A DNA stretch of 64,000 nucleotides, from contig CAYJVC010000004.1 in NCBI GenBank assembly GCA_964373505.1, forward strand, positions 5,916-69,915, given 5' to 3'. The DNA comes from an uncultured Planctomycetia bacterium. Lineage in GTDB: Bacteria; Omnitrophota; Gorgyraeia; 2-02-FULL-51-18. The notes under the pieces are model-generated. The model was not told the origin of the DNA. It made no database searches and saw only the letters and a program-made list of their open reading frames with translations. Positions 1 to 58,546 of the stretch are shown here, one piece after another. Both the position numbers and the translations under genes were made by a program. The number at the start of each line of letters is the position of its first letter. Position 1 is the stretch's first letter.

Positions 1-57
1 AGACACAGCGCGGCCCACTTTTTAAGGTTTTTTCTGACACAGGCAGGGAAGGCGATG

Positions 58-1140
58 TTATTCGATCTCGACGACGGAGTCGAGCCCGCCGTAAGGATTG
101 GGTTCCAAGTGATCGTTGAAAGGGTCGGTGGTCCACTGGCCATCCACAACAAATTTATAGCGGTATTTTCCGGGGTCCAGGAAAACTCTCTTTTGCCACA
201 ACCCTTCCTCCGTTCTCCAGAGGAGGGATTCTTGGGATACCCGCCAGTGGTTGAAGTCGCCTACCAGGTGCACTTCCTTGGCGTCCACCGCTTTCACGAC
301 AAAGTCTTTGATGCGGTTCGAAGCCAGATCGAACCGCGCGCCATCGACCTTAATGTCCAAAGATGCTTCACCCGCGATGCGTTCCAAAAGTTCTTGCGTA
401 AGCGCAAGGTAATCCTGAGCGCCTTTGGAACGGAGGTTGTATTTTAATACCGACCGGCCCTTGGCCTGGGACTCCCGGACGGAAACGGTCTGACGGATCG
501 GGCGGGACAGGATGTGTTCGCCGAAGGAATCGCCGATCTCGCTGAGCATATGCTTCGCGAATTTCGTGCGCATGTCCACCAGGGTCGGCAACGCCCAAAC
601 GCGCGGCGTGTGCTGGAGTTTTACGCGGATAAGCTCGACCATGCTGAGGAGCTTGCTCACTCCCATCAAAGAGAATGAGCCCAGCTCAATGGGCACGACG
701 AGGGTCTGCGAGGCTCTGAGCGCATTGAACGTCAGAAAACCCAAACTGGGCGGGCAATCGATCACCACGTACTCGTAGGGAAATGAAAGCGTCCGGAGGA
801 GGCTGTAAAGCTTGGAGACCGACTCGTCCTTGTTCGTGAATTCCTGCTCGATCGTGCTTAGCAGGAGGTGCGACGGGGCCAGATCCAGCTGAGCATCGAT
901 CGGGAGTATGACGTCTTCCAAAAAATGCTTCCGCCGTTCGGGCTGCTCGGTCAGGACGTTGTAGATGGAGTTTTCCAGTTTATCGCTGCGAACGCCGAGC
1001 CCGAACGTCGCGTGCGCCTGGGGATCGAGGTCGATCAAAAGGCTCTTTTTGCCGAGGTGCGCCAGACTCGCCGCGATGTTGATCGCGGACGTTGTCTTGC
1101 CGCACCCCCCTTTTTGATTGGATAGGGCGATGACGTGCAT
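58..1140 (-). CDS. ParA/MinD-family P-loop ATPase fused to a C-terminal CBM48/AMPK-beta-type glycogen-binding domain
   Basis: 360-aa ORF with deviant Walker A KGGCGKTT at the N-terminus. The C-terminal ~75 aa (VHLVGDFNHWR...YRYKFVVDGQWTTDP...) matches the AMPK-beta GBD / CBM48 fold. Confidence 0.8.
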   Translation of the reverse strand: MHVIALSNQKGGCGKTTSAINIAASLAHLGKKSLLIDLDPQAHATFGLGVRSDKLENSIYNVLTEQPERRKHFLEDVILPIDAQLDLAPSHLLLSTIEQEFTNKDESVSKLYSLLRTLSFPYEYVVIDCPPSLGFLTFNALRASQTLVVPIELGSFSLMGVSKLLSMVELIRVKLQHTPRVWALPTLVDMRTKFAKHMLSEIGDSFGEHILSRPIRQTVSVRESQAKGRSVLKYNLRSKGAQDYLALTQELLERIAGEASLDIKVDGARFDLASNRIKDFVVKAVDAKEVHLVGDFNHWRVSQESLLWRTEEGLWQKRVFLDPGKYRYKFVVDGQWTTDPFNDHLEPNPYGGLDSVVEIE

Positions 1141-3395: not shown

Positions 3396-3572
3396 CTAAA
3401 ATTTTTTGCGGTTGCGGCTGCTGCGGGCCTTGCGACGCTTTATTTCGCTGGGTTTTTCGTAGTGTTTACGCGCCTTCAATGTTTTGAGAATGCCTTCGCG
3501 CTCTATTTTTTTCTTAAAGCGACGAAGCGCTTTCTCCAGCGGTTCGTTGGGACCCACCTCAACTCTGGACAT
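3396..3572 (-). CDS. rpsU: 30S ribosomal protein S21
   Basis: 58-aa ORF absent from the track because it is under 60 aa. It translates to MSRVEVGPNEPLEKALRRFKKKIEREGILKTLKARKHYEKPSEIKRRKARSSRNRKKF, typical of S21. Confidence 0.85.
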   Translation of the reverse strand: MSRVEVGPNEPLEKALRRFKKKIEREGILKTLKARKHYEKPSEIKRRKARSSRNRKKF

Positions 3573-3635
3573 TAATAAAAAATCCTTTCTACTTTGCCAT
3601 CAATGAGTTACGTAAATTATGGAAGAATTATAATC

Positions 3636-4658
3636 TTATTTGAAGCGGCTGTCAATGATGAGGCGGTTGTTTCTTAGCCGGATGCAGACAAAGCCGGGAA
3701 GATGCGTCTCAAGCAAGGGCTTATGCCCTGGCCGCAACATGTCAGCGACGGCCGCAAGGTGGGAAAACCCCACGCGCCGAGTGTCCCCTTTCACTTGGGT
3801 GAGCGCGCGGAGGATCACCTCTCTTTGAATAGCCGGGTGATAGCGTTGGAGCTTTTTTACGTGAAGGGTAGCCCGGCGTTTTGATCTTGTGCGGATCCGG
3901 CAAGCTTGAAGGGCGATACTTGAAATTCCGTCCAAACAATCCTGGATTTCCTGGCTGACCCGTTGGAGACTTGCCAAAGCGCTTTTGATGTTGGGGTTGA
4001 ATTCATGTTCAAGAACATGGAGCAAGCGGCGCCGAACGCGATTTCTTAAAAATGTCGTGTCGCGATTCGTTCTGTCGATGCAGAAGCGCAGTCCGTTTTT
4101 TCTTAAAAAACGGACCAGGGCACTTTTTTCAACATCCAGAAGAGGCCTCACCACCGCGAACCGGCCCTGGGCGCGTTTGTAGGGAATTCCCGACAGCCCT
4201 TTGATGCCCGAGCCTCGGATGATGCGCAAGAGCACGGTTTCGGCCTGGTCGTCGCGCGTGTGGGCGGTCGCGATGCTTTGGCAGCCGAAACGGCCGGCGA
4301 TTTTCTCAAAAAAACGGTAGCGTTCGATGCGGCCCGCTTCTTCGAGAGAGCGCCCGAGGCGCTTGGCGATCTCCTTAAGCTTAATTCTTTTGATCCGGAA
4401 CGGCAAACCGAGCTTTTCACAGCTCTGCCGGACAAGCGCTTCATGGCGTTTCGCCTGTTGAGGCCAAAGGCCGTGATTCACATGGGCCACGACGAGTTTC
4501 AGTGAGTATTTTTTCTGAAGCGCCAGGAGGATCCTCAAAAGCGCGATCGAATCAGGCCCGCCGGAAACGGCCAATACGATCGCGTCGTTTTTGTGGAACA
4601 GCGCGTGACGCTTACGGGTGAGCTCGACGGTTTCGAGTATTTTCTTGATGGACTTCAA
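3636..4658 (-). CDS. tilS: tRNA(Ile)-lysidine synthetase
   Basis: PP-loop SGGPDS (LAVSGGPDSIALL) and a TilS-like length of 340 aa. Confidence 0.85.
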   Translation of the reverse strand: MKSIKKILETVELTRKRHALFHKNDAIVLAVSGGPDSIALLRILLALQKKYSLKLVVAHVNHGLWPQQAKRHEALVRQSCEKLGLPFRIKRIKLKEIAKRLGRSLEEAGRIERYRFFEKIAGRFGCQSIATAHTRDDQAETVLLRIIRGSGIKGLSGIPYKRAQGRFAVVRPLLDVEKSALVRFLRKNGLRFCIDRTNRDTTFLRNRVRRRLLHVLEHEFNPNIKSALASLQRVSQEIQDCLDGISSIALQACRIRTRSKRRATLHVKKLQRYHPAIQREVILRALTQVKGDTRRVGFSHLAAVADMLRPGHKPLLETHLPGFVCIRLRNNRLIIDSRFK

Positions 4659-11698: not shown

Positions 11699-11814
11699 CC
11701 CACCCCCTGCTTTCTTCCGCCATCCATAGTTTCAATCCCACGATTGGCGGAATGATTCGTCAAAGACGAATCAAAAAATCCGCGGGATTTTTTAGAAGCA
11801 GGGGGTGGGGTCAT
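11695..11814 (-). repeat. family-A palindromic intergenic element (copy a) with 39-aa linker micro-ORF MTPPPASKK...RKQGVG
   Basis: Arms CCCCACCCCCTGCTT / AAGCAGGGGGTGGGG. The micro-ORF ATG overlaps the hemB TGA (ATGA) and its TGA overlaps the hemL GTG (GTGA). Confidence 0.75.
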
Positions 11815-25960: not shown

Positions 25961-27954
25961 ACGTTGACGCTTTTTTCTTTCTCCAGCTTTTTTTGAATGG
26001 ATTTGATCTGGTCGCGCAAAAGGATCGCCCGTTCGAACTGGAGGTTGTGCGCCGCCTCCTCCATCTCGGCCTCGAGATCGCTTAAGACCTGCAGGACATC
26101 CCCGACCCCCTCCGGAAGCCCCGCCGCCTCCTTCACGATCTCCCGCGCTTTCTTAATGGCCTCGATCCCCTCCCTTATTTCTTTCCGGATGGTCGTGGGT
26201 GTGATGCGATGCTTTTTGTTGTACTCCGCTTGCAGCTTGCGGCGGCGTGTCGTTTCCTGGATCATCTTTCGCATGGACTCCGTCACCGTGTCGGCGTACA
26301 GGATGACCTGGCCGCGGACGTGCCGCGCCGCTCGGCCCGCGACCTGGATCAGGGAGGTTTGGCTTCTCAAAAAGCCTTCCTTGTCCGCATCGAGCACGAC
26401 GACCAGCGAAACTTCCGGCAGGTCAATGCCTTCCCTTAAAAGATTGATCCCCACGAGGCAATCGAATTTTCGAAGCCGCAGGTCCCGCAGGATCTCAACG
26501 CGCTCGATCGCGTCGATCTCAGAGTGGAGGTATTTTACGCGGATGTCCGCCGTTTTCAGGTAATCCGCAAGTTCCTCGGCCATGCGTTTCGTGAGCGTGG
26601 TGACGATCACACGCTCTTTGTCCCTCGCGCGTTTTTTTACCTCTTCCATGAGATCGTCGATCTGGCCCCGCGTGGGCCGCACCTCCACCGGCGGGTCGAG
26701 GAGCCCCGTCGGCCGGATGAGCTGCTCCACGATGCGGGCCGATCTCCTGAGCTCGTAATCGGACGGTGTCGCGGACATGAACACGAGCTGTTTGGCGAAC
26801 GCTTCAAATTCTTCGAATCTCAAAGGCCGGTTGTCGAGCGCCGACGGAAGCCGGAAACCGTACTCCACGAGCGTTTCTTTGCGGGCACGGTCGCCGAAAT
26901 ACATGCCGCGGATCTGCGGGATCGTGATGTGTGATTCGTCGATCACCGTCAGAAAATCCTCGGGAAAATAATCCATGAGGCAATAGGGGCGCGACCCCGG
27001 CGGGCGCCCCGTGAGGGTGCGGGAATAATTCTCTATCCCTGAGCAAAAACCGAGCTCCCGCATCATTTCCATGTCGTAACGCGTCCTCTGCTCAAGACGT
27101 TGGGCCTCCACGAGCTTATTTTGCGATCCCAGTTCCCTCAAGCGCTCCTCGAGTTCTTTTTCTATGCCCACGAGCGCTTGTTCAAGCCGCGTCTGGGTGG
27201 TCACAAAGTGCTTGGCGGGATAGATTGCGCCGGATTCGAGCGACTGAAGCGCTTTTCCTGTCAGCGGATCGATACGCGAGAGCCTTTTTATTTCCTCCCA
27301 TTCGTATTCGATCCGGATCGCGGTCTCCTCATAGGCGAGAAACACCTCCACCACGTCCCCCCGGACCCGGAAAGCGCCGCGCTTGAAATCCACATCGTTT
27401 CTCTGGTACTGGATATCCACGAGTTTTTTTAAAAGTTCCTCCCGCGGAAGGCGCCGGCCGAGCTTAAGAAAAACAAGCATTTCCGAGTACTCCGCCGGCG
27501 AGCCCAATCCGTAGATCGCGGACACGGACGCGACCACAAGGCAGTCGCGGCGTGACAGGAGCGAACTTGTCGCGCGAAGCCGGAGCCTGTCGATGTCTTC
27601 ATTGATCGAAGAATCTTTTTCAATGTAAGTGTCGGTCGTCGGAATATAAGCCTCCGGCTGATAATAGTCGTAATAACTTACGAAGTACTCCACCGCGTTT
27701 TCGGGGAAGATCTTCTTGAATTCACTGTAAAGCTGAGCGGCCAGAGTCTTGTTGTGGGACAAGACGAGCGTCGGACGGCTTAAGTTCGCGATCACGTGGG
27801 CCATCGTGAAAGTTTTGCCGCTGCCGGTGACGCCCAGAAGCGTCTGGGCACGCTCGCCGGCCAGGAGGCCCTGCGTTAGTTTTTCGATGGCCTGCGGCTG
27901 GTCCCCCTTCGGGGTCATTTTAGACTGTATTTTAAAGTTCATACTCCGCGTCAC
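25957..27954 (-). CDS. uvrB: excinuclease ABC subunit B
   Basis: 665 aa with [14 protein letters not shown] Walker A, GDQPQAI, and a C-terminal UvrB/UvrC interaction region. Confidence 0.95.
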
Positions 27955-27968
27955 CCGCGAATGTCACG

Positions 27969-28820
27969 TCAACCGACGATGTCGAGCGCCACGTCGATGG
28001 AAGGCGCGTGGTGCGTCAGAGCGCCCACGGAGATCCTCTCCACCCCTGTTTGGGCGTAGTCCAGCACATTGTCGAGCGTGATGCTGCCTGAGGCCTCAAA
28101 AAGGATCTTGCCGCCCGTTCTCCTTCTTAGGTTGACCGCTTCACGCACGCTCTCCACGCTCATATTGTCGAGGAGAATATAGTCGACCGGTGTTTTCAGG
28201 GCTTCTTTCAGTTCCATGAGATTTTTTACCTCGACCCCGACAAGGGCGCGCTTCAACACGGACTCTTTTAAACGGGAAACGACGGAGCCAATGGATTCCT
28301 TCCGGAGGATCCTCAGGTGATTGTCCTTGATGAGCGCCTGGTCGTACAGCCCCATGCGGTGGTTCAGGCCGCCGCCCCTTGCGACCGCGTATTTTTCAAA
28401 AAGCCTCAAACCGGGCGTAGTCTTGCGCGTGTCCAGGATGTTGGCCTGCGTATTTTTCACTTTCTCGACGAATTCACGGGTGCGCGTGGCGACCCCTGAA
28501 AGATGGCTTAAGAAATTGAGCGCTGCGCGTTCCGCGATCAAAATGGAGGCGGCTGAACCTTCAATATAAGCCACTTCGCGGTTTTTTTCGATCCTTTCTC
28601 CGTCCCGGGCCACCGGGAGAAAGCGTAGGTCTTCGTCGACCAGGCGGAACACGCGTTCGGCGATCTGGAGGCCGCACAGGATGCCGGCCTCTTTGAATTC
28701 AATATCCGCTTTGATGTGCCGGTCTTTGGGGATGATCGAAGAGGTCGTGATGTCTTTCGACCCCACGTCTTCCCGGATGGCCTGCTTGACGATCGGGTCT
28801 ATCTGGCTTATCTGGAGCAT
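27969..28820 (-). CDS. nadC: nicotinate-nucleotide pyrophosphorylase (carboxylating)
   Basis: QPRTase-like body. I prefer the start at ATG MLQISQ (28820); the track start (TTG at 28871) would read through the family-B hairpin. Confidence 0.75.
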   Translation of the reverse strand: MLQISQIDPIVKQAIREDVGSKDITTSSIIPKDRHIKADIEFKEAGILCGLQIAERVFRLVDEDLRFLPVARDGERIEKNREVAYIEGSAASILIAERAALNFLSHLSGVATRTREFVEKVKNTQANILDTRKTTPGLRLFEKYAVARGGGLNHRMGLYDQALIKDNHLRILRKESIGSVVSRLKESVLKRALVGVEVKNLMELKEALKTPVDYILLDNMSVESVREAVNLRRRTGGKILFEASGSITLDNVLDYAQTGVERISVGALTHHAPSIDVALDIVG

Positions 28821-28833
28821 TGAAGTTCTCTCT

Positions 28834-28871
28834 TGACTTCGACGGGTCCTGCCGCTTCGGCTCGAAGTCAA
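28834..28871 (-). repeat. short family-B hairpin (copy B1) between valS and nadC
   Basis: TTGACTTCGACGGGTCCTGCCGCTTCGGCTCGAAGTCAA shares the core TTCGACGGGTCCTGCCGCT with copies at 50377-50487 and 57685-57828. Confidence 0.6.
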
Positions 28872-33181: not shown

Positions 33182-34407
33182 GCCTTGTTTGACCTTTCGA
33201 GTTTGAATTTGTTGTGCAAAAGCCGGACCGCTTTTTCAGCCTCGCTTTTTTTGACGACGCAGGAGATCTTGATCTCGCTGGTGGAGATCATCTCGATATT
33301 GATCCTGTTCTTTCCGAGCGTCTCAAACATCGCGGCCGCAACACCCGCATGGCTTCGCATGCCGATGCCGACCACGGAGACCTTTGCGATATTCGGATCG
33401 AGCAGCACTTCTTTTGCGCCGATCTTCTTCGAGGCGGCTTTGAGCGCGTGCACGGCCCGGAGAGCGTCGCCTTTGGGCACCGTGAACGAGATGTCCGTGT
33501 TGAAGGCGGACTTCCCGATATTCTGGATGATCATGTCCACATGGATCCCCTTGTTCGCAAGGGTCTTAAAAATGCCCGCCGCGATGCCGGGCCGGTTGGG
33601 GACGCCTCGCACAGAAATTTTAGCTTCGTTTTTATTTAAAGTTACGCCGCGGATCAATACGTCTTCCATTGAGCTATCCTCCTTCACGATCCATGTGCCT
33701 TCGTTTTTTGTAAAACTGCTCCTGACATGAAGCGGAATATGGTGCTTACCGGCCAACTCGATAGACCGCGACTGCATGACCTGTGCGCCGCTCGAGGCCA
33801 TTTCCAGCATCTCCTCATAACTGATCTTCCGGATTTTCCTGGCTTTTTTCACAAGGCGCGGGTCCGTGGTGAATATTCCCTCGACATCCGTGTAGATCTC
33901 GCAGGCGTCGGCCTCCAGCGCCTTTGCAAGCGCAACCGCGGTTAGGTCGCTGCCGCCGCGGCCGAGTGTGGTGATGTCATTTTGCGGGTTGACTCCTTGA
34001 AAGCCCGCCACGATCACAACCTTCTTATTCTTAAGCTCCCGTAAAATACGTTGGGTATTGATATGGCGGATGCGCGCGCAGGTGTGCGCGGGGCTTGTGC
34101 GAATGCCCACCTGCCAGCCCGTAAATGAAACAGCCGCGCTCCCGAGCTTCTCGAGCGCCATCGCCAGAAGCGCCATGGAGACCTGCTCCCCCGTGGACAT
34201 CAGAACATCGAGTTCCCGCTCGGAAGGTTTTCGTGTGATCCGGGAAGCGAGCCCCAAAAGTTCGTCCGTCGTGTCGCCCAACGCACTCACCACGACCACG
34301 AGGCGGTGCCCTTTTTTTCGGGTGTCATCGATCCGGCGGGCGACATTTTTGATCCGGTCGGGATTTGCGACGCTTGAGCCGCCGAATTTCTGCACGATCA
34401 GTTTCAT
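33178..34407 (-). CDS. lysC: aspartate kinase
   Basis: MKLIVQKFGGSSVANPDRIKNVA start and C-terminal ACT domains. The track ORF includes a 15-aa extension that is really the family-A element. Confidence 0.9.
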   Translation of the reverse strand: MKLIVQKFGGSSVANPDRIKNVARRIDDTRKKGHRLVVVVSALGDTTDELLGLASRITRKPSERELDVLMSTGEQVSMALLAMALEKLGSAAVSFTGWQVGIRTSPAHTCARIRHINTQRILRELKNKKVVIVAGFQGVNPQNDITTLGRGGSDLTAVALAKALEADACEIYTDVEGIFTTDPRLVKKARKIRKISYEEMLEMASSGAQVMQSRSIELAGKHHIPLHVRSSFTKNEGTWIVKEDSSMEDVLIRGVTLNKNEAKISVRGVPNRPGIAAGIFKTLANKGIHVDMIIQNIGKSAFNTDISFTVPKGDALRAVHALKAASKKIGAKEVLLDPNIAKVSVVGIGMRSHAGVAAAMFETLGKNRINIEMISTSEIKISCVVKKSEAEKAVRLLHNKFKLERSNKA

Positions 34408-34490
34408 CCCACCACCTCTTTTCGAGGCGGCATAGCCGCCTCCGCGTGACAAACTGAAATTGAAAATTTCAAAAGAGGGGGTGGGGTCAT
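34404..34490 (-). repeat. family-A palindromic element (copy b) with 28-aa micro-ORF MTPPPLLKFSISVCHAEAAMPPRKEVVG
   Basis: Arms CCCACCCCCTCTTTT / AAAAGAGGTGGTGGG. Its ATG overlaps the apgM TGA and its TGA overlaps the lysC ATG (ATGA at both ends). Confidence 0.75.
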
Positions 34491-35632
34491 TTCAAAAAAT
34501 GCTCCATGAGCGGGTGTCCTTCAGGGAATTGAAGTTTGCTTTGAGCCGCCGTTTTTTCGTTGAAGCCCGGGTGCTTTTCCGCGGCGAATCCGTGCCCCGC
34601 GATGAGGAACGGCACCGGCCCGTGAGCAGCCGAACGGCTCGCGGAGGATGTCGCCGTGTCCGTGCAAACGAGCAAACGGTGATCCCCCAGGTTTTCCAGG
34701 CACTTCGTGGCAATTCCCACAACCTGCGCATCAAAGCGTTCGATCAGACGAATTTTTGTTTTCCAGGGATCGGTTTCGGGTTGTACCTGGTCTGCGGCCA
34801 TGTACACGAACGTGAGTTCATGGTTTCGGAGCGCCTTTTCAAGGTCGTCGACGACCTTGAAACCCAGGGACAGTCCGAGCCCCTTGGCAAAATCAGCCTG
34901 AGAAAATACGGCGCCGTCCACGCCAAAGCGATCCTTGAAACGGGGAAGCCGGGGCCGGCGGCCCTGCCCCCAGGGCCAGATCATGTTCGCCGGATTTTCC
35001 CCGAGGTCTATCCTGACCCGGTTGATCTCATGGTGCTCCAGAACGGTCTTGGATTTTTCCATGAGACTTGTGATGACCTCGGCGTCTTCCCCCTTCGGGA
35101 GCACCTTGGCCATTTTCTGACCGATCGCCCGTGAAGGCGGAACGCACTCCAGCTCATCGAGACTTTCGGCCTTTTCAGGGTCACGGATCATCAGGATATT
35201 TTTGTAGCCTTCTCTCGGATAGAACTTGATCTGCGGGCTTGAGAGTTTTTTATTGAGTTCCTCGATCAAGAGTGAGGACTCCTCGGGCGGAATGAAGCCT
35301 GCGCTTACATCTGCCAGAAGCCCGTCCGAAACCGTGACAAGGTCGCAGCGGAACGCGATCTCATTGTCGTCCTGGGAGATACCGGCTGCGGCGGCCTCAA
35401 GCGGCGCAACCCCCGTGTAAAATTCTTCCGGAGGGTAACCCAGAATGGCCATCGCCGCGACGTCGCGTGTTAGGGCCAATTTAGGCGACGTGAAGATCGC
35501 CGAACCCACACGGCCTTTTTTTGCCAATTGATGCAAAAATGGGGCTTTTGCCAGTTCCATCGGCGTGCGGCCGCCCAGAGCCTCGACCGGATCGTCCGTG
35601 GCCGCTTCGCAAACCAACACCGCGTATTTCAC
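34487..35632 (-). CDS. cofactor-independent phosphoglycerate mutase (archaeal ApgM type); by context a candidate non-orthologous homoserine kinase
   Basis: 381-aa ApgM-family protein that starts with GTG. It is embedded between lysC and thrC with hom upstream, and no classical thrB is present in the block. Confidence 0.6.
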   Translation of the reverse strand: MKYAVLVCEAATDDPVEALGGRTPMELAKAPFLHQLAKKGRVGSAIFTSPKLALTRDVAAMAILGYPPEEFYTGVAPLEAAAAGISQDDNEIAFRCDLVTVSDGLLADVSAGFIPPEESSLLIEELNKKLSSPQIKFYPREGYKNILMIRDPEKAESLDELECVPPSRAIGQKMAKVLPKGEDAEVITSLMEKSKTVLEHHEINRVRIDLGENPANMIWPWGQGRRPRLPRFKDRFGVDGAVFSQADFAKGLGLSLGFKVVDDLEKALRNHELTFVYMAADQVQPETDPWKTKIRLIERFDAQVVGIATKCLENLGDHRLLVCTDTATSSASRSAAHGPVPFLIAGHGFAAEKHPGFNEKTAAQSKLQFPEGHPLMEHFLK

Positions 35633-35715
35633 CCCATCCCCTCTTTCTGAGGCGCCAACGGCGCCTCGGCGTTGTACGCTGAAATTGAAAAATTCAAAAG
35701 AGGGGATGGGGTCAT
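35629..35715 (-). repeat. family-A palindromic element (copy c) with micro-ORF MTPSPLLNFSISAYNAEAPLAPQKEGMG
   Basis: Arms CCCCATCCCCTCTTTT / AAAGAGGGGATGGGG. It makes an ATGA overlap with the thrC stop and a GTGA overlap with the apgM-like start. Confidence 0.75.
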
Positions 35716-38074: not shown

Positions 38075-38093
38075 TTTTCTCTTTCATAAATTG

Positions 38094-38169
38094 TCGGGGT
38101 GGTGAGATTTGAACTCACGATCTCGCGCACCCCAAGCGCGCGCTCTGGACCAAGCTGAGCCACACCCCG
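38094..38169 (-). tRNA. tRNA-Pro (GGG anticodon)
   Basis: Cloverleaf CGGGGTGTGGCTCAGCTTGGTCCAGAGCGCGCGCTTGGGGTGCGCGAGATCGTGAGTTCAAATCTCACCACCCCGA with anticodon loop TTGGGGT. CCA is not encoded. Confidence 0.8.
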
Positions 38170-38177
38170 TATAATTT

Positions 38178-43309: not shown

Positions 43310-43392
43310 GCGGGTTTCACCCCACCCTCTGATCGGCTCATCTTTGATGAACCGATCGCTCTAAGATCGTTGCGATCAGGCGGTGGGGTCAT
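43306..43392 (-). repeat. family-A palindromic element (divergent copy d) with micro-ORF MTPPPDRNDLRAIGSSKMSRSEGGVKPA
   Basis: Arms CCCCACCGCCTGATCG / CGATCAGAGGGTGGGG. It makes ATGA overlaps with the phosphohexomutase stop and with the lepA ATG. Confidence 0.7.
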
Positions 43393-48151: not shown

Positions 48152-48938
48152 GGATGGCCTTTGCGAACGGGCGCACAAATTTTTTTGCGAACGCCTCGGC
48201 GTTCAAATGAAGATGCGCGGCCAGCGTGTTTACCAGGGCGCTGCCTACGATGACGCCGTCGGCGATCTTTGACACCTGCTTCGCACGGGCAGGATCTGAG
48301 ACGCCGAAACCCACGCACACCGGGAGTGCCGTCATTTTCTTGATAGCGGAAATATTTTTACGGACGCTCTCCGTCACAAGGTGATGGGCGCCGGTTACGC
48401 CGGTCAGGGAAACGTAGTAAATAAAACCCCTCGAGGCTCCTACGATAAGCCGGCGCCGTGCCCCGGTGCTTGTGGGCGCCAAAAGATACACCAGGTCCAC
48501 GCCGTTCCTGCGCATGAGCGCGCGGATGTCTTTTTCCTCGTCCGGCGGTAGGTCCGGCACTATCAAACCGTCCACGCCGGAGTCGCGCGCGGCCTTCGCG
48601 AAATGAGCCGGGCCCATCGCGAGGATCGGATTGAGATAGCTCATGAGGAGGATCGGGGTGCTTGATTTCCTGCGGGCTTTTTTCACAAGCGCTAAAATTT
48701 TACGCAGCGTCGTGTGTCGCTTGAGCGACCGGTTGGAAGCCTCCTGGATGACGGGCCCGTCCGCCAAGGGGTCTGAAAAAGGCACCCCCAGCTCAATGAG
48801 GTCCACCCCCGCCTTCTCCAATGTGCCGATCAACTCCCCGGTCATTTTGAGGCTTGGGTCGCCGGCCGTGATAAAAACGACAAGCGCCTTTTTCCCTTCC
48901 TTTTTCAGCGCTTTGAATTTTTTTTCTATACGATTCAC
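48144..48938 (-). CDS. trpA: tryptophan synthase alpha chain
   Basis: 264 aa that starts with GTG and is typical of TrpA (LVVFITAGDPSL...). Confidence 0.9.
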   Translation of the reverse strand: MNRIEKKFKALKKEGKKALVVFITAGDPSLKMTGELIGTLEKAGVDLIELGVPFSDPLADGPVIQEASNRSLKRHTTLRKILALVKKARRKSSTPILLMSYLNPILAMGPAHFAKAARDSGVDGLIVPDLPPDEEKDIRALMRRNGVDLVYLLAPTSTGARRRLIVGASRGFIYYVSLTGVTGAHHLVTESVRKNISAIKKMTALPVCVGFGVSDPARAKQVSKIADGVIVGSALVNTLAAHLHLNAEAFAKKFVRPFAKAIHD

Positions 48939-49021
48939 CCCACCCCCTCCTTTTGAGACAACGATGTTGTCTCAATGCTATGCATCAAAATTGAAAATTT
49001 TAAAGGAGGGGGTGGGGTCAT
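48935..49021 (-). repeat. family-A palindromic element (copy e) with micro-[31 protein letters not shown]
   Basis: Arms CCCCACCCCCTCCTTT / AAAGGAGGGGGTGGGG. It makes an ATGA overlap with the trpB stop and a GTGA overlap with the trpA start. The AAGGAGG Shine-Dalgarno site lies in the 3' arm. Confidence 0.8.
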
Positions 49022-50223
49022 AGATGCAAAACCTTTGAAACGCTTTCCATGTCTTTGTCGCCCCGTCCCGAGAGGCAAACCACGATCACTTCTTTCTTTT
49101 TAAAGCGTGATTTGTGTTTGGCCAGATACCCGAACACGTGCGCGGTTTCAAGCGCCGGAATGATGCCCTCGGTTTGGCTTAAAATTTTCATCCCCAAGAG
49201 CGCTTCCTTGTCGGTCGCCGATACGTATTCCGCGCGGCGGATCTTTTTCAGGTACGCATGTTCAGGGCCTACGCCGGGATAGTCGAGACCCGCCGAGATC
49301 GAGTGCGCGAGTTTCACCTGTCCGTCCCGGTCCTGCAACACCTCGCTTTTTGACCCGTGCAGGACGCCGATCTTGCCCAAAGACAGTGTCGCCGAATGGC
49401 GGTCCGTGCCCAGGCCATGGCCTGCCGCCTCCACACCGATAAGTTTCGTTCTGCTTTTAAGGAAAGGATAAAAAAGGCCGATGCTGTTCGACCCGCCGCC
49501 CACGCAGGCGATGCAGGTGTCGGGCGAACGAACCCCCAGAGGCCTTAACTGCGCAATCGTCTCTTTTCCGATCACCGATTGAAAATCCCTCACCATCACG
49601 GGGTACGGATGAGGCCCGATCACCGAGCCAATAATGTAATGCGTGTCCTTCACATGAGTGACCCAGTCGCGGATCGCCTCGTTCACGGCGTCTTTCAAGG
49701 TCCGCGAGCCGGATCTTACAGGGATCACGCGCGCGCCGAGGAGTTTCATGCGGAATACGTTGAGCGCCTGCCGCTCGATGTCCACCTGCCCCATGTAAAC
49801 ATCGCAGGGAATACCGAAAAGAGCGCACACGGTCGCGGTCGCAACGCCATGCTGCCCGGCTCCCGTTTCGGCGATCACGCGCTTTTTGCCCATGCGAAGC
49901 GTCAAAAGCGCCTGCCCAATCGTGTTGTTGATCTTGTGGGCGCCGGTGTGGAGAAGGTCCTCCCGCTTAAGATAGACTTTTTTCACGCCGAGATATTCGG
50001 CCAGGTGCCGGGCTTCGGTGAGCGCAGTCGGGCGACCGGCAAAATTCCTCAGGTAATGGCTGACTTCCTTTTTGAATTTCGGATCGAGCCGAGTGCTCCG
50101 GTAAGCTTTCTCAAGCTCTTCCAGCGCGGCCATCAAGGTTTCGGGCACGTACTTCCCTCCGTACGGCCCGAAGTGGCCGCGCGAGTCCGGAACTTTGGTT
50201 CGGCGGTTACGCTGATCTGGCAT
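49018..50223 (-). CDS. trpB: tryptophan synthase beta chain
   Basis: 401 aa with a PLP-binding region HTGAHKINN. Confidence 0.95.
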
Positions 50224-50920
50224 TTTGGATGAATTCTTTCAAAAGTTCATGGTCCTTGATCCCCGGGCGCTTTTCCACGCCGCTCGAGACGTCCACGCCG
50301 TAGGGTGAAAGTGTCTGAATGGCTTTCCGGACGTTGCTGGGACGAAGCCCCCCTGAAATAATCACTGGTTTTAGTCGATCTCGAAGGTCACGGGTCCTGC
50401 CGCTCCGAGAGCCCATTTTTTGCAAGTGTTTCCCTTGCAAAAAATGGGCGCCCCTCTCCGCGTCACCCGTGACCTTCGAGATCTCGGCTGACAACATTTT
50501 CCAATTGAAATTTTGCCCGCTTCCTCCGTATCGGCCTGTTACTTGTGTGTCAAATAAATAGGCGTCCGCGGGAAAGCCGAGAAGATTTTCCAAATGAAAC
50601 CCTTCATCGACGCGAAAAGCCTTTATGACTTTACAACAACGGAGCTTTTTTGTATAGGCCCGGGTTTCGTCCCCGTGAAGCTGCACCGCGCTTAAGCCGC
50701 AGAGCCGGGCTATCATCTCCACTTTCCTGGGGTTTTCGTTCACGAAAACCCCCACCGTCGTGACAAAGGGTCCGAGTTTTCCTATGATCTCTTGTGCCCT
50801 TTTTGGGGTCAGCCGCCGCGGGCTTTTGGCGAATACGAACCCGAGCGCGTCGGCCCCACACCCAAGTGCGGCGCGCGCGTCGGGCAAATTCGTGATCCCG
50901 CAGATCTTAACCCTGACCAT
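50207..50920 (-). CDS. trpF: phosphoribosylanthranilate isomerase carrying an in-frame ~37-aa insertion derived from a family-B palindromic element
   Basis: VKICGIT...[16 protein letters not shown] then an extra [36 protein letters not shown] before the conserved PVIISGGL. Confidence 0.8.
50377..50487 (-). repeat. family-B palindromic element (copy B2) inserted in-frame within trpF
   Basis: CGATCTCGAAGGTCACGGGTCCTGCCGCTCCGAG...CGCGTCACCCGTGACCTTCGAGATCTCG with ~20-bp perfect inverted arms. Length is a multiple of 3. Confidence 0.75.
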
Positions 50921-52717: not shown

Positions 52718-53286
52718 TATTGGGTCAGACGGAGGAAATTTTTCAGGATCTCTTTGCCGGACTGCGTCAGGATGGATTCAGGATGGAACTGGACTCCGTA
52801 AACCGGGTATCGTTTGTGTTGAAGGCCCATGATCTCCTTTTCCCGGGTCTCGGCCGTGATCTCCAGCTCTTTCGGCAGGCTTTTTCTTTCGACCAAAAGC
52901 GAGTGGTACCTTGTACCGATGAACGGATTATCGATATTTTTGAAGATCCCCTTCCCGGTGTGGTGAATCCGCGAGGTTTTTCCGTGCATGAGCCTGGCCG
53001 CACCCACCACTTTTCCGCCGTAGGCTTCGCCTATGCACTGATGCCCCAGGCAGACGCCGAGGATCGGGACCTTGTCGCCGAGCTTTTGGATGATCTGGAG
53101 GGAAATGCCGGCCTGCTTCGGGTTGCCGGGGCCCGGCGAGATCACGATGCGGCTTGGTTTCATTTTTTTGATCCGGGGTATCGTGATTTCGTCATTCCTG
53201 AAAATTTTAAGTTCCTGCCCCATTTCGCCCAGGTACTGCACGAGGTTATAAGTGAACGAGTCATAATTGTCGATCATCAGGATCAC
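52717..53286 (-). CDS. trpG: anthranilate synthase component II (glutamine amidotransferase)
   Basis: [18 protein letters not shown]...GVCLGHQ. I place the start at GTG, overlapping the micro-ORF TGA; the track ORF reads on into the repeat. Confidence 0.85.
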
Positions 53287-53438
53287 CCCATCCCCTCCTT
53301 TTGAGACGACATTGCCCCATCCCCCGTTTGAATGATTGCTTCGCAATCAGTTCGCGGAGCGAACCAAACAGGGGATGGGGTTGTCGTCCCAATGCTTTGC
53401 ATAAGAATTGAAAATTCTAAAGGAGGGGATGGGGTCAT
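53283..53438 (-). repeat. family-A element (copy f) with nested internal duplicate; 51-aa micro-ORF MTPSPPLEFSILMQSIGTTTPSPVWF...SSQKEGMG
   Basis: Outer arms CCCCATCCCCTCCTTT / AAAGGAGGGGATGGGG plus an inner CCCCATCCCCTGTTTG / CAAACGGGGGATGGGG pair. ATGA overlap with the trpE stop and GTGA overlap with the trpG start. Confidence 0.75.
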
Positions 53439-55341: not shown

Positions 55342-55506
55342 TTAACATGTGTCATTTCGAGCGCCCGCCAAAGGCGGGTCCGCCTCAGGCGGAAAGCGAG
55401 ACCAGCCTGTCCCTGCCCGTCCGGCAGGCGGGCGGCAGGCAGGAATCTCATCAAGTCGTGTGATGAGATCTCTCGTCGCTTCGCTCCTCGAGATGACATG
55501 GTTCAT
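55342..55506 (-). repeat. family-C multi-hairpin GC-rich intergenic element between hisF and hisI, spanned by a 54-aa linker ORF
   Basis: Outer inverted repeat GTCATTTCGAGCG / CGCTCCTCGAGATGAC enclosing three further hairpins. The linker ORF MNHVISRSEATRDL... starts 3 nt after the hisF stop. Confidence 0.5.
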
Positions 55507-55509
55507 GTC

Positions 55510-56271: not shown

Positions 56272-56984
56272 ACTTGAATAGCTTCTTTTAGCGTGAATTT
56301 GTTCTCATAAAGCGCTTTGCCTATCACGACCCCCCGGATGTTCTTTTTCTTGAGTTTCATCAGCGCTTCGAGGTCCTTCAGCGAACTCACGCCCCCGGAG
56401 GCGATAAGGTCGAGGTTCACGGCTTCACTGGCGTTTTTTATCTCTTTGATGTTCAACCCGGAAAGAGCCCCGTCCTTTGAAATATCCGTGTAGATCACGG
56501 TTTGCCCGCCGAGCTTTTCAAATTCTTTGATGAATTGGACGGCATTTATTTTTGTGACCTTTGTCCAGCCGTCCGTCGCGATGAGCCCGTCCCGTGCATC
56601 GACGCCGATGATCGCCTTCTCCTTAAGCTCGGACACGAGCTCTTTTATGAATCCTCTGTCGAGACACGCCTGGGTGCCGAAAATGACCCACCCGGCGCCC
56701 ATCGCCAGATACCTAGCCGCGGTTTGGAGGCTGCGGATGCCGCCTCCCACCTCGACCGGGGTCCGCACGGCGTTTAAGATCCGCTCGATCGTCTTTATGT
56801 TTTTCGGCTCGCCTTTCAGCGCCCCGTCCAGGTCCACCACGTGGATCCTGGACGCCCCCTCCTCTTCAAAGCGCCTGGCGATATCTTCCGCCTTTTCCGA
56901 ATAGATCTTTTCGGCCTTGAAGTCTCCTTGGAAAAGACGGACAACCTTACCGTCCTTGAGGTCGATCGCGGGGATAGGGATCAC
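56253..56984 (-). CDS. hisA: 1-(5-phosphoribosyl)-5-[(5-phosphoribosylamino)methylideneamino]imidazole-4-carboxamide isomerase
   Basis: Starts with GTG: (M)[16 protein letters not shown]... Confidence 0.9.
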
Positions 56985-57067
56985 CCCGCCCCCTCTTTCC
57001 GAGGCGCCAGCGGCGCCTCGACGTTGCAGGTTGAAATTAAAAATTTTGAAAGAGGGGGTGGGGTCAT
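56981..57067 (-). repeat. family-A palindromic element (copy g) with micro-[31 protein letters not shown]
   Basis: Arms CCCCACCCCCTCTTTC / GAAAGAGGGGGCGGGG. Its ATG lies 6 nt after the hisH TAG stop and its TGA overlaps the hisA GTG. Confidence 0.75.
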
Positions 57068-57073
57068 GCGAGG

Positions 57074-57688
57074 CTACTTAAGACGGACGAAGTTCTTGAC
57101 GATCCGAAGGCCCGCGTTCTGGCTTTTCTCGGGATGGAACTGGGTCGCAAAGATATTATCGCGCCAGACGCTGGAGCAGAATCCAAACCCGTAATCGGTG
57201 GTGGAGGAGACCCAGCTTGTGTCCTGGGGGGCGCCGTAGAACGAATGCACAAAATAGAAAAAATCGCCCGGACGGATCCCCTGGAAAAGCGGACAGTCTT
57301 TTTTTTTGAGGTTCAACGTGTTCCAGCCCATGTGCGGGATCTTGAGTCTTACTCGGAATTTTTTCACCTTTCCGCGGATGATCCCAAACCCGGCGGACTT
57401 GCGCTTGCCTTCATTTTCCTCGCTCTCCTCGAATAAAAGCTGCAGCCCCAAGCACAAGCCAAGATAGGGCGTGCCCCCAAGCACTTTTTTACGGATTACG
57501 TCCACCAGCCTCCGCTTCTCAAGCTCGCGGACAGCCGCCGTAAAGGCACCGACACCGGGCAGCACGATCATTTCGGCGTTGGCGATGTCGGATCGGGACG
57601 ACGTGATCCTGGGTTTGGCCCCGCCCTTCTCGAACGCCTTCTCGACGCTGCGGAGATTGCCCATCCCATAATCCACAATAGCAATCAT
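57074..57688 (-). CDS. hisH: imidazole glycerol phosphate synthase glutamine amidotransferase subunit
   Basis: MIAIVDYGMGNLRSV...GVCLGLQ. Confidence 0.95.
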   Translation of the reverse strand: MIAIVDYGMGNLRSVEKAFEKGGAKPRITSSRSDIANAEMIVLPGVGAFTAAVRELEKRRLVDVIRKKVLGGTPYLGLCLGLQLLFEESEENEGKRKSAGFGIIRGKVKKFRVRLKIPHMGWNTLNLKKKDCPLFQGIRPGDFFYFVHSFYGAPQDTSWVSSTTDYGFGFCSSVWRDNIFATQFHPEKSQNAGLRIVKNFVRLK

Positions 57689-57828
57689 TCGACAAACCAG
57701 TCTGGATTCGACGGGTCCTGCCGCTGCGGCAGCCCCAATGGTTCCCGCGTCACTGCGGAGCGCTGCGAGCGAATGGGGCGCCCCGCCTCCGCGTCACCCG
57801 TCGAATCCAAAATCTCTGCGAAAATCAT
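57685..57828 (-). repeat. family-B palindromic element (copy B3) filling the hisB-hisH gap, spanned by a 47-aa linker ORF MIFAEILDSTGDAEAG...NPDWFVE
   Basis: Arms GATTCGACGGGTCCTGCCGC / CGCGTCACCCGTCGAATC. The linker ATG overlaps the hisB TGA (ATGA) and the linker TGA overlaps the hisH ATG (ATGA). Confidence 0.7.
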
Positions 57829-58451
57829 AATTTCCCTTTTGTTGAAGGGATAAACTTAATGCGTTCGTCGAGCGCCGTGGCCCAATCGAGCGCCTTGGCA
57901 AGCGCTTTAAAGGTCGCTTCGATGATGTGGTGAGACTGCTCGCCCGCGATGAAATCCACGTGCAGCGTAAGCCCTAGGTGTCCGGCGAACGACTCCCAAA
58001 AGTGTTTGGCGTCCGCGAGCGTGTAGTCCCGATCGCCTTTTTTTTCACGAAGCGCCGGGTGATCGATCCATTTTGTTTTCGGGTGAGTGTGCATATGAAA
58101 CGAACCGCGTCCGCTCAAGTCAATGGACACGCGTGTTTGGGTCAGCGCCTCGTCGAGCGGTGCGCGGAAATCCGCGAATCGCCGTATCCCTTTTTTGTCG
58201 CCCAGCGCTTTTTTGAACGCCTCCCCGAGCGCTATGCCGACGTCTTCGTTCGTGTGGTGCTTGTCAATGTGAAGGTCCCCTTTGGCCTTGAGCACAAGAT
58301 CAAACAGCCCGTGCTTGGCCAAAGTTTCGAGCATATGGTCCAAAAAACCGATGCCGGTGCTGACTTTTGCACGGCCCTTGCCGTCGATGTTGAGCTCGAC
58401 GACAACGCTTGTTTCCTTCGTTTTTCTGCTATACTTAACCGCTCGTTTCAT
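57825..58451 (-). CDS. hisB: imidazoleglycerol-phosphate dehydratase
   Basis: 208 aa with IGFLDHML, HHTNEDVGIALG and HIIEATFKALA motifs. Confidence 0.9.
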   Translation of the reverse strand: MKRAVKYSRKTKETSVVVELNIDGKGRAKVSTGIGFLDHMLETLAKHGLFDLVLKAKGDLHIDKHHTNEDVGIALGEAFKKALGDKKGIRRFADFRAPLDEALTQTRVSIDLSGRGSFHMHTHPKTKWIDHPALREKKGDRDYTLADAKHFWESFAGHLGLTLHVDFIAGEQSHHIIEATFKALAKALDWATALDERIKFIPSTKGKL

Positions 58452-58546
58452 GTCAGCCCCGTTTTTTCACCCCATCCCCTATTTCGTGACGCAAAGCGTC
58501 ACCTTTTGATTTGCTTTGCAAATCAAGAAATAGGGGATGGGGTCAT
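58452..58546 (-). repeat. family-A palindromic element (degenerate copy h); micro-ORF truncated to MTPSPIS
   Basis: Arms CCCCATCCCCTATTTC / GAAATAGGGGATGGGG with a different internal loop. ATGA overlap with the hisD stop. hisB uses its own ATG 20 nt downstream. Confidence 0.65.

Follow-up and report, generated by a model that had tools for sequence, protein, structure and literature searches.

What is a 47-codon open reading frame (ORF) doing between hisB and hisH, and how did the palindromic DNA that it runs through come to be there? The question is raised by a 64,000-nucleotide stretch of contig CAYJVC010000004.1 (positions 5,916 to 69,915; assembly GCA_964373505.1), referred to here as the window, from an uncultured bacterium labelled Planctomycetia and placed by GTDB in the Omnitrophota. 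A first-pass annotation had described the ORF as filling the hisB-hisH gap and overlapping both neighbours. It had assigned the DNA between the genes to a repeat family, family B, distinct from another in the window called family A, and had proposed either that insertions within operons must preserve the hand-off of ribosomes or that a dedicated mechanism inserts them at ATGA junctions. We find that the gap holds an inserted member of a mobile palindrome family that is spread over genomes labelled as many phyla, and we lean towards the view that selection for translational coupling has kept it in a form that ribosomes can cross.

The first-pass description of the junction is exact in gene layout and coordinates. 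This part of the window has all its genes on the minus strand, and the features of the junction are as follows.

57825 to 58451, minus strand: hisB (imidazoleglycerol-phosphate dehydratase, PF00475), the upstream gene, ending ...AAA TTA TGA
57074 to 57688, minus strand: hisH (glutamine amidotransferase), the downstream gene, beginning ATG ATT GCT
57685 to 57828, minus strand: 47-codon linker ORF covering the entire hisB-hisH gap, the only sense frame open through the element
57825 to 57828, minus strand: ATGA in which the hisB TGA overlaps the linker ATG (57828-57826); host sequence, TTG TGA in the relative L190
57685 to 57688, minus strand: ATGA in which the linker TGA (57687-57685) overlaps the hisH ATG; host sequence (Met-Ile), GTG ATC in L190
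57689 to 57824, minus strand: 136-nt spacer, the inserted family-B element; net 135 nt (45 codons) compared with a 1-nt spacer in L190

The translation of the linker is MIFAEILDSTGDAEAGRPIRSQRSAVTREPLGLPQRQDPSNPDWFVE. The spacer folds as one long imperfect hairpin (-74 kcal/mol, z = -3.8, no shuffle as good), directly after which comes the hisH ATG, and no Shine-Dalgarno sequence for hisH was found within the 20 nt before that ATG. An AAGGGA in the end of hisB, 5 nt upstream of the linker ATG, is the former hisH ribosome-binding site, now standing in front of the linker.

That the element is an insertion can be seen from two relatives, L187 (the Omnitrophica metagenome-assembled genome (MAG) MHFI01) and L190, which were reached through their TrpF homologues. 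Both have the same alaS-hisDBHAFI-trpEGDCFBA order, with HisD 90, HisB 87-89 (89 in L190) and HisH 79% identical to the proteins of the window, and neither carries a copy of family A or family B within the 20-kb syntenic block. In L190 the junction reads ...AAG TTG TGA A GTG ATC GCA..., that is, a stop, one base and a start, so the window carries a net 135-nt (45-codon) insertion. Since the L190 junction already holds both motifs, the two ATGA overlaps of the window come from the host, one being the Leu-TGA of hisB and the other the Met-Ile of hisH. The L190 junction also contains a mini-ORF of two codons, GTG AAG TGA, whose phase is that of the linker. The frame of the old junction has been kept because the insert is a multiple of three in length, and the insert has no stop in that frame. 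In L187 the same junction (3430-3647) is occupied by a different, unrelated palindromic element of ~190 nt, and hisH there has its own AAGGA Shine-Dalgarno sequence in the spacer after the element. Overlaps of 4 nt between hisB and hisH are found in 5 of 36 distant relatives. A metagenome scan with HisH returned relatives of at most 56% identity and no empty site.

The element at the junction has a conserved core enclosed by complementary arms, and the window holds one further full copy and two fragments. The first-pass annotation was right to treat it as a second repeat family, unrelated to family A.

57713 to 57799, minus strand: conserved core of the his copy, 87 nt (covariance model 82.9 bits, E=4e-17)
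57799 to 57787, minus strand: 5' core of the his copy, GGGTGACGCGGAG, followed by the variable paired interior
57724 to 57713, minus strand: 3' core of the his copy, GCGGCAGGACCC, which closes the 87-nt core
57800 to 57809, minus strand: 5' outer arm of the his copy, TGGATTCGAC, pairing with 57703-57712
57703 to 57712, minus strand: 3' outer arm of the his copy, GTCGAATCCA, pairing with 57800-57809
50377 to 50483, minus strand: second full copy, inside trpF (50207-50920) and in frame, with 15-bp perfect arms and the core at 50392-50468
28834 to 28870, minus strand: deletion derivative with 9-bp arms and the 3' core only, in a short intergenic spacer
27944 to 27956, minus strand: solitary 5' core, GGGTGACGCGGAG, in a 26-nt spacer between the TGA of the upstream gene (27969-27971) and the ATG of the downstream gene (27940-27942)

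The his and trpF copies have a 5' block, ACGGGTGACGCGGAG, and a 3' block, AGCGGCAGGACCCGT, in common. Their interiors are paired yet different and their arms also differ, each set being perfectly complementary; the trpF copy has the stronger fold (z = -8.4). At both the insert is a multiple of three in length. In the solitary 5' core the GTG (27952-27954) is in frame with the downstream ATG at 27940-27942.

To see how far the family extends, genomes were scanned, one per species, for the pattern GGGTGACGCGGAG-N40-70-GCGGCAGGACCC. Among the matches listed there are more than 105 loci with both cores, where 0.03 would be expected by chance. They carry 11 phylum labels: Omnitrophota, Planctomycetia, Patescibacteria (including Uhrbacteria), Gammaproteobacteria (including Legionellaceae and Coxiellaceae MAGs), Rokubacteria, Limnocylindrales, Nitrospirae, Eubacteriales, Opitutales, Chitinivibrionia and Aminicenantes. 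A single Omnitrophota MAG, JACPAY01, accounts for about 40 of the loci listed. The elements are 66-190 nt long, with cores of 66-95 nt and variable tips, and have a GC content of 58-86% in hosts that range from 34% to 73%. Alignment and RNAalifold give, from the outside inward, variable outer arms, GGGU/ACCC, an asymmetric internal loop, CGC/GCG, a second loop, a covarying stem (11 of the 19 predicted pairs show two-sided compensatory changes) and an apical module of at least two types. The covariance model R1 was tested on the first 100 loci (L002-L101) and on 690 kb of unrelated metagenome contigs; it found 114 copies in the former and none in the latter, and in the window it recovers the two full copies only.

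The outer arms are 0 to 58 bp long and often perfect; they are lineage-specific with the pairing kept, and are common to sub-families within one genome, such as GTGTCTCAATTTGGC and GCTCTGTCGAA in JACPAY01 (a further example of a sub-family end is GGTSGTGTCTCAATTTGRC). In a Planctomycetia MAG (L085 ~30-210, minus strand, and L056) one copy has outer arms that contain, in inverted orientation, a 22-nt duplicate of the 3' end of the tRNA gene beside it, which suggests that arms can grow by copying host flank, for instance by template switching at the hairpin. At L059 (~2018-2040) a minimal derivative has the 5' core fused straight to the 3' core (GGGTGACGCGGAG|GCAGGACCC) with the whole interior gone; together with the two half-copies in the window this points to decay of the family by internal deletion. 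Copies may also occur as opposite-orientation pairs, ~40 codons apart within a PurL-like ORF at L100, and at L094 (5122-5209 and 5560-5647) with flanks that are complementary over more than 70 nt and form a much larger palindrome.

In Rfam 15 the his copy has no match at E<=10, and neither the window nor 18 of the loci gave a match at the gathering score. Nothing significant was returned by BLAST of the his copy against plasmids and phages or of one Coxiellaceae copy against plasmids, the core pattern had no match in IMG/VR, and a literature search with the core strings brought up no relevant paper. Family B, with its nested palindromes and an asymmetric core that does not vary, has apparently not been described before.

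A number of copies sit in frame within real genes. Pfam domain matches on both sides of the insert identify the hosts as PRAI (the trpF of the window), DnaX, GHMP kinase, amine oxidase, ribosomal protein L1, MnmE, where the insert is within the G domain, and CobA/BtuR, where it is antisense; in cytidylate kinase, also confirmed with Pfam, it forms an N-terminal extension. TruB, BirA and PurL hosts were recognised by eye only. Two sense frames (..GDAE.. and ..VTRS..) and antisense frames (...SASP...) are used. Translation of the 3' core gives QRQDP in one copy and SGRTRD in another, and the frame of this core differs between the two copies of the window, so it is the nucleotide sequence that is conserved and not a peptide. 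The trpF insert is in frame and without a stop, and by alignment adds ~34-36 residues between FNW and KPVIISGGL: TrpF here has 237 residues, where all 120 of the 120 best homologues have 200-221. In an AlphaFold model the barrel is confident and the insert is a loop with a predicted local distance difference test (pLDDT) score below 50 (residues 155-181). The left arm and a decayed 5' core are still present in trpF of L187; the trpF insertion is therefore old, and in the relative it has been eroded by an in-frame internal deletion.

Stop triplets are depleted. In the variable interiors of 53 non-redundant copies, counted on both strands, there are 49 against 73.7 +/- 6.4 expected from dinucleotide-preserving shuffles, none of 500 being as low; with all 98 distinct cores the count is 86 against 127 expected. 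The invariant core has a stop in only one of its six frames, two sense frames and all antisense frames being open. This stop is the TGA of GGGTGAC (57793-57799, minus strand, in the window), where it overlaps a GTG and so forms a GTGA stop/start overlap. Of 109 copies, 11 have an upstream ORF of 100 codons or more that terminates at this TGA. From the overlapping GTG an ORF runs on as far as the next gene in 5 of the 11; the same arrangement is seen at hisH/hisA of L066 (1327-1330).

Is the bridging of gene junctions by such ORFs more than chance would give? At low-GC loci 6 of 21 gaps that hold an element are bridged, as against 45 of 1198 gaps without one (p = 1e-4), and at high-GC loci 13 of 69 as against 112 of 1417 (p = 0.004), an enrichment of 2.4-fold to 7.6-fold over the control gaps. 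In the window, 8 of the 10 gaps of 50-320 nt with a small palindromic element (family A or A-like, family B, or an unclassified run of hairpins at hisF/hisI) are spanned by an ORF touching both neighbours, compared with 1 of 10 other gaps, the one that contains a tRNA gene (p=0.003). Independent bridges elsewhere include L010 (before a purS-like gene), L002, L023, L078, L065, L055, L098 and L020. The his operon is affected again in L066, a locus of the Omnitrophota MAG JACPAY01, with family-B copies at hisA/hisF and hisH/hisA. At hisH/hisA, the reading frame of hisH extends into the element and ends at the core TGA. A 40-codon ORF begins at the GTG overlapping this stop, and its own TGA overlaps a TTG that is in frame with the hisA ATG and lies 6 nt before it. 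In the same locus (545-1211) hisA appears to be split between two frames, which may be an assembly error or a real frameshift. The bridging pattern is non-random at the level of both the family and the genome.

The explanation that we consider the more probable is that family B is a mobile element of the MITE or RPE kind (for miniature inverted-repeat transposable element and Rickettsia palindromic element, both compared below), and that purifying selection maintains translational coupling across hisB-hisH. The element would have entered a tight, translationally coupled junction after the split from the closest sequenced relatives. Initiation would take place at the linker ATG, where it overlaps the hisB stop, and would rely on what used to be the ribosome-binding site of hisH. 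By reading through all 47 codons the ribosomes would melt the hairpin; they would then finish at the linker TGA and begin anew at the hisH ATG that it overlaps. The bridge thus probably passes ribosomes on to hisH, and the linker peptide itself would have no function. Copies that break the chain of coupling at junctions, or the frame inside genes, would be lost by selection, and the scarcity of stops on both strands across the family would make survival of a copy likely. The rule is a filter on survivors where coupling matters and is neither a universal property of the family nor a mechanism of insertion.

The closest competitor is that the ORF is incidental: a GC-rich, stop-poor insert happens to be 45 codons long and hisH is expressed by another route, so that the linker is not needed. 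We regard this as unlikely. A number of points weigh against the coupling explanation, and several of them suit an incidental ORF. Taken alone, the phasing of the his copy is only mildly improbable, because with one of three sense frames open and one of three phases fitting it would arise roughly once in 9 cases or slightly more often. The overlaps themselves are cheap, a TGA preceded by A, G or T giving an overlapping start and a start codon followed by A giving an overlapping TGA. A tRNA gene of the window (38094-38169), lying between protein genes, is spanned (38075-38177) by a 36-codon ORF with ATGA overlaps at both ends, and doubly overlapping ORFs can therefore arise by chance. Only ~20-30% of the copies between co-directional genes are bridged, most junction copies being unbridged, and L187 tolerates an unbridged element at the very same junction, where the GTG-started frame meets a TAG inside the element. 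The bridging counts also rest on crude ORF-based gene calls, which include spurious ORFs in high-GC genomes. The depletion of stops could in part have been inherited from a stop-poor ancestor, the copies being kin, and stops close all three sense frames or all six frames of L004, L037, L044, L046, L085, L087 and L059. Target duplications, described below, occur in a minority of copies only, and no transposase partner turned up, though no search aimed at one was made. Lastly, that the linker is translated, that ribosomes reinitiate after it and that expression of hisH needs it are steps we infer from the sequence.

What tells against an incidental ORF is the enrichment of bridging over control gaps, both across the family and in the window, the length of the insert, a multiple of three at both full copies of the window, and the comparison of the two hisH genes: the bridged one lacks a Shine-Dalgarno sequence after its hairpin, while the unbridged one in L187 has its own. 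The idea put forward in the first-pass annotation, that insertions must preserve ribosome hand-off, accordingly survives as an enrichment, with hisH lacking its own Shine-Dalgarno sequence in its favour, but not as a general constraint, as most junction copies are unbridged. Its picture of a translated-through design is likewise borne out by the in-frame gene copies and the depletion of stops but does not extend to every copy. Copies elsewhere that contain stops, which it had named as evidence to the contrary, do exist in part, as L004, L037 and L044 illustrate.

A bolder version of the coupling explanation would be that family B represents cross-phylum "translation-transparent" palindromes that have themselves been selected for letting ribosomes pass in nearly any frame. 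The depletion of stops on two strands, the open frames of the core and a closed frame that ends in a GTGA overlap would all fit such a class, but we put this forward tentatively. If true, such an element could colonise genes and coupled operon junctions that are otherwise closed to mobile DNA, and would create linker ORFs acting as ribosome relays.

A further explanation is that the element is a structured RNA in the operon transcript, acting as a stabiliser, processing site or attenuator, so that the core is an RNA motif and the ORF is irrelevant. Roles of this kind have been reported for REP (repetitive extragenic palindromic) and ERIC elements, and the strong folds of the his and trpF copies, the covarying stems with invariant internal loops and a roughly 2:1 excess of the sense orientation relative to neighbouring genes (22 as against 10, p=0.05, in a by-eye tally) would be in keeping with this. 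However, the two strands are alike. There are 80 G:U pairs on one strand and 93 on the other, and the folding energies are equal (Wilcoxon p = 0.61). Copies lie in both orientations relative to host genes, including in frame and antisense inside them. No Rfam family was found, nor was a terminator or promoter signal found at the element. Beyond the arms, 11 of 104 copies have direct repeats of at least 8 nt placed symmetrically on the two sides, compared with 1% when flanks are mismatched (p=1e-7); TTGGCCGC, AATAATCG and CCTCATGGAG are examples. Such repeats are as expected for target duplications made by a transposase, which in this family would be ~8-10 bp, and they are suggestive of transposition. 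Strand-equal folding, both orientations, flanking repeats and shared arms together point to a non-autonomous DNA transposon and not to a strand-specific RNA; family B behaves as mobile DNA with a conserved hairpin core. An RNA-level role as the principal explanation is therefore improbable, though the hairpin may play one as a side effect.

Other identities were also set aside. The test of strand symmetry and the antisense copies inside genes led us to discard a ribozyme, riboswitch or other strand-specific RNA. Integron attC sites are defined by R''/R' boxes (RYYYAAC ... GTTRRRY) at the base of the hairpin and by cassette arrays; in family B the bases flanking the core vary (GAC/GTC, CGC/GCG, GAG/CGA, TAC/GTA), GTTRRRY is absent and the context is that of housekeeping operons. 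Family B has none of the motifs that define dif/Xer sites, Tn3-type ends or group II and other introns, and it preserves reading frames.

It is very improbable that a dedicated mechanism targets and duplicates ATGA stop/start overlaps, with the double overlap made by the transposase. The his copy lies between direct repeats of ATGATT, placed 23 and 24 nt from its core, similar repeats occur at L002 (ATGAAGA), L010 (CATGA) and L055 (CATGAT), and the family seems to make target duplications. However, both motifs are already present in the empty site of L190, so duplication is not needed, and the case for ATGATT as a target duplication of the his copy is weakened because host sequence can account for the repeat. 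Elsewhere the target repeats are unrelated in sequence (TTGGCCGC, AATAATCG and others), and many copies lie inside genes, next to tRNAs or in ordinary spacers without ATGA; this part of the first-pass interpretation is not supported. That the linker is a genuine small-protein gene is extremely improbable, since, even though it is recorded as a 47-aa protein (source NCBI) in the protein collection, a search of 5.8 billion proteins returned only itself, the differing frames of the 3' core in the two window copies place conservation at the nucleotide level, and near-identical DNA copies are closed, L004 in three sense frames and L032 in five of six.

Several other junctions in the window hold small palindromes, most of them of family A.

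34402 to 34490: family A element
35627 to 35715: family A element
48933 to 49021: family A element
53283 to 53438: family A element
56979 to 57067: family A element
58460 to 58546: family A element
43310 to 43388: family A element
11699 to 11810: family A element

On its sense strand family A reads ATGACCCC(A/T)CCCC...GGGG(T/A/C)GGGGTGA, and TGA is present as a direct repeat at both ends, which suggests a 3-bp target duplication. The gene that follows (hisA, trpG or trpA) starts with a GTG built from the last G of the element and TG, and some copies have GGAGG just upstream. The copies at 43310 and 11699 have different interiors and were missed by the repeat finder. At 53283-53438 one family A copy is nested in another, the inner one flanked by CAA, and a 51-codon ORF is open through both, overlapping the trpE stop and the trpG GTG; the nested insert is 69 nt, or 23 codons. 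At the equivalent junctions of L187 and L190 the genes overlap by 4 nt or stand 5-6 nt apart, with the exception of hisD/hisB in L187 (49 nt). The hisF/hisI gap (55349-55509) is 161 nt, compared with a 4-nt overlap in the relatives, and contains small GC-rich hairpins of no recognised family; its 54-codon ORF starts 3 nt past the hisF TAG and stops ~15 nt short of the hisI ATG, a start codon served by an AGGAG of its own.

To our knowledge, how in-frame "coding palindromes" move and why they are tolerated has been a puzzle since the RPEs, which are said to go back to Ogata et al. in 2000 and 2002. Family B widens the data on coding palindromes with over 100 copies in many phyla, target duplications and dated insertions with empty sites, and its invariant core must be what the mobilising enzyme reads. 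The his junction would further imply that small mobile hairpins can sit between coupled genes if a through-ORF relays the ribosome, an arrangement unreported in the literature compared here. In annotation, such ORFs of 30-60 codons are called hypothetical proteins. The findings also bear on operon models in uncultured lineages such as the Omnitrophota and on the origin of new protein segments.

How does family B compare with palindromes already described? Classical bacterial MITEs (ERIC, Correia and others) are small, non-coding elements present in many copies. They have terminal inverted repeats and produce target duplications, are transcribed together with the operons in which they lie, and in some cases contain ORFs. 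Family B resembles them in being under 300 bp and multicopy, in having terminal inverted repeats and in lacking a transposase gene. In the classical MITE, however, it is the terminal repeats that are conserved, whereas in family B the interior core is invariant across phyla and the arms vary with pairing kept.

GTAG- and CGTC-tagged REPs are short palindromes, often arranged as inverted dimers (REPINs) that form one long hairpin, and are associated with RAYT transposases; they are sometimes nested in longer palindromes and lie mostly between co-directional or convergent genes (PMC3733652). Their ends can supply stop codons, and some intragenic REPs encode 20-30 residues (PMC3733652). The nested-palindrome layout and the occasional intragenic sites are common to REPs and family B. 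REPs are, however, units of 20-40 bp with near-identical dimer halves, while the halves of the family-B core differ in a fixed way (GGGTGACGCGGAG as against the reverse complement GGGTCCTGCCGC), so that the tag-and-dimer organisation of a REP or REPIN is not seen. A GTAG does stand 3' of the core in gammaproteobacterial copies, but it is part of the stem, and the polarity of a REP tag does not fit.

QMITE2 of Coxiella burnetii, which is also known from distant taxa, has a full form of 150-190 bp, with terminal inverted repeats and unique direct repeats of 7-11 nt, and a smaller form, a hairpin of 83-100 nt whose stem is conserved and whose tip varies (PMC5896051). It lies mostly at the 3' ends of genes, overlapping those of neighbouring genes by 1-10 bp, and in intergenic DNA; it contains a GTAG REP and serves as a target of IS1111, and no in-frame gene copies have been reported (PMC5896051). 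Family B is like QMITE2 in architecture, with cores of 66-95 nt, variable tips, arms and direct repeats of 7-10 nt, and it occurs in Coxiellaceae and Legionellaceae MAGs. No association of family B with IS1111 was seen, and GTAG follows the core only in the gammaproteobacterial copies.

RPEs are palindromic repeats of Rickettsia and its relatives that lie in frame in unrelated housekeeping genes (as summarised in PMC10969869 and PMC3733652). RPEs and family B are both ~100-150 bp, and each adds an extra surface segment to the translated host protein. A conserved peptide is reported for RPEs, whereas family B uses two sense frames and the antisense strand and has no conserved peptide. RPEs are known from Rickettsia and relatives, while the family-B core is found in genomes labelled as 11 phyla; bridging of coupled genes is not known to have been described for RPEs and is seen in family B. 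As in-frame coding palindromes, RPEs are the closest to family B in behaviour.

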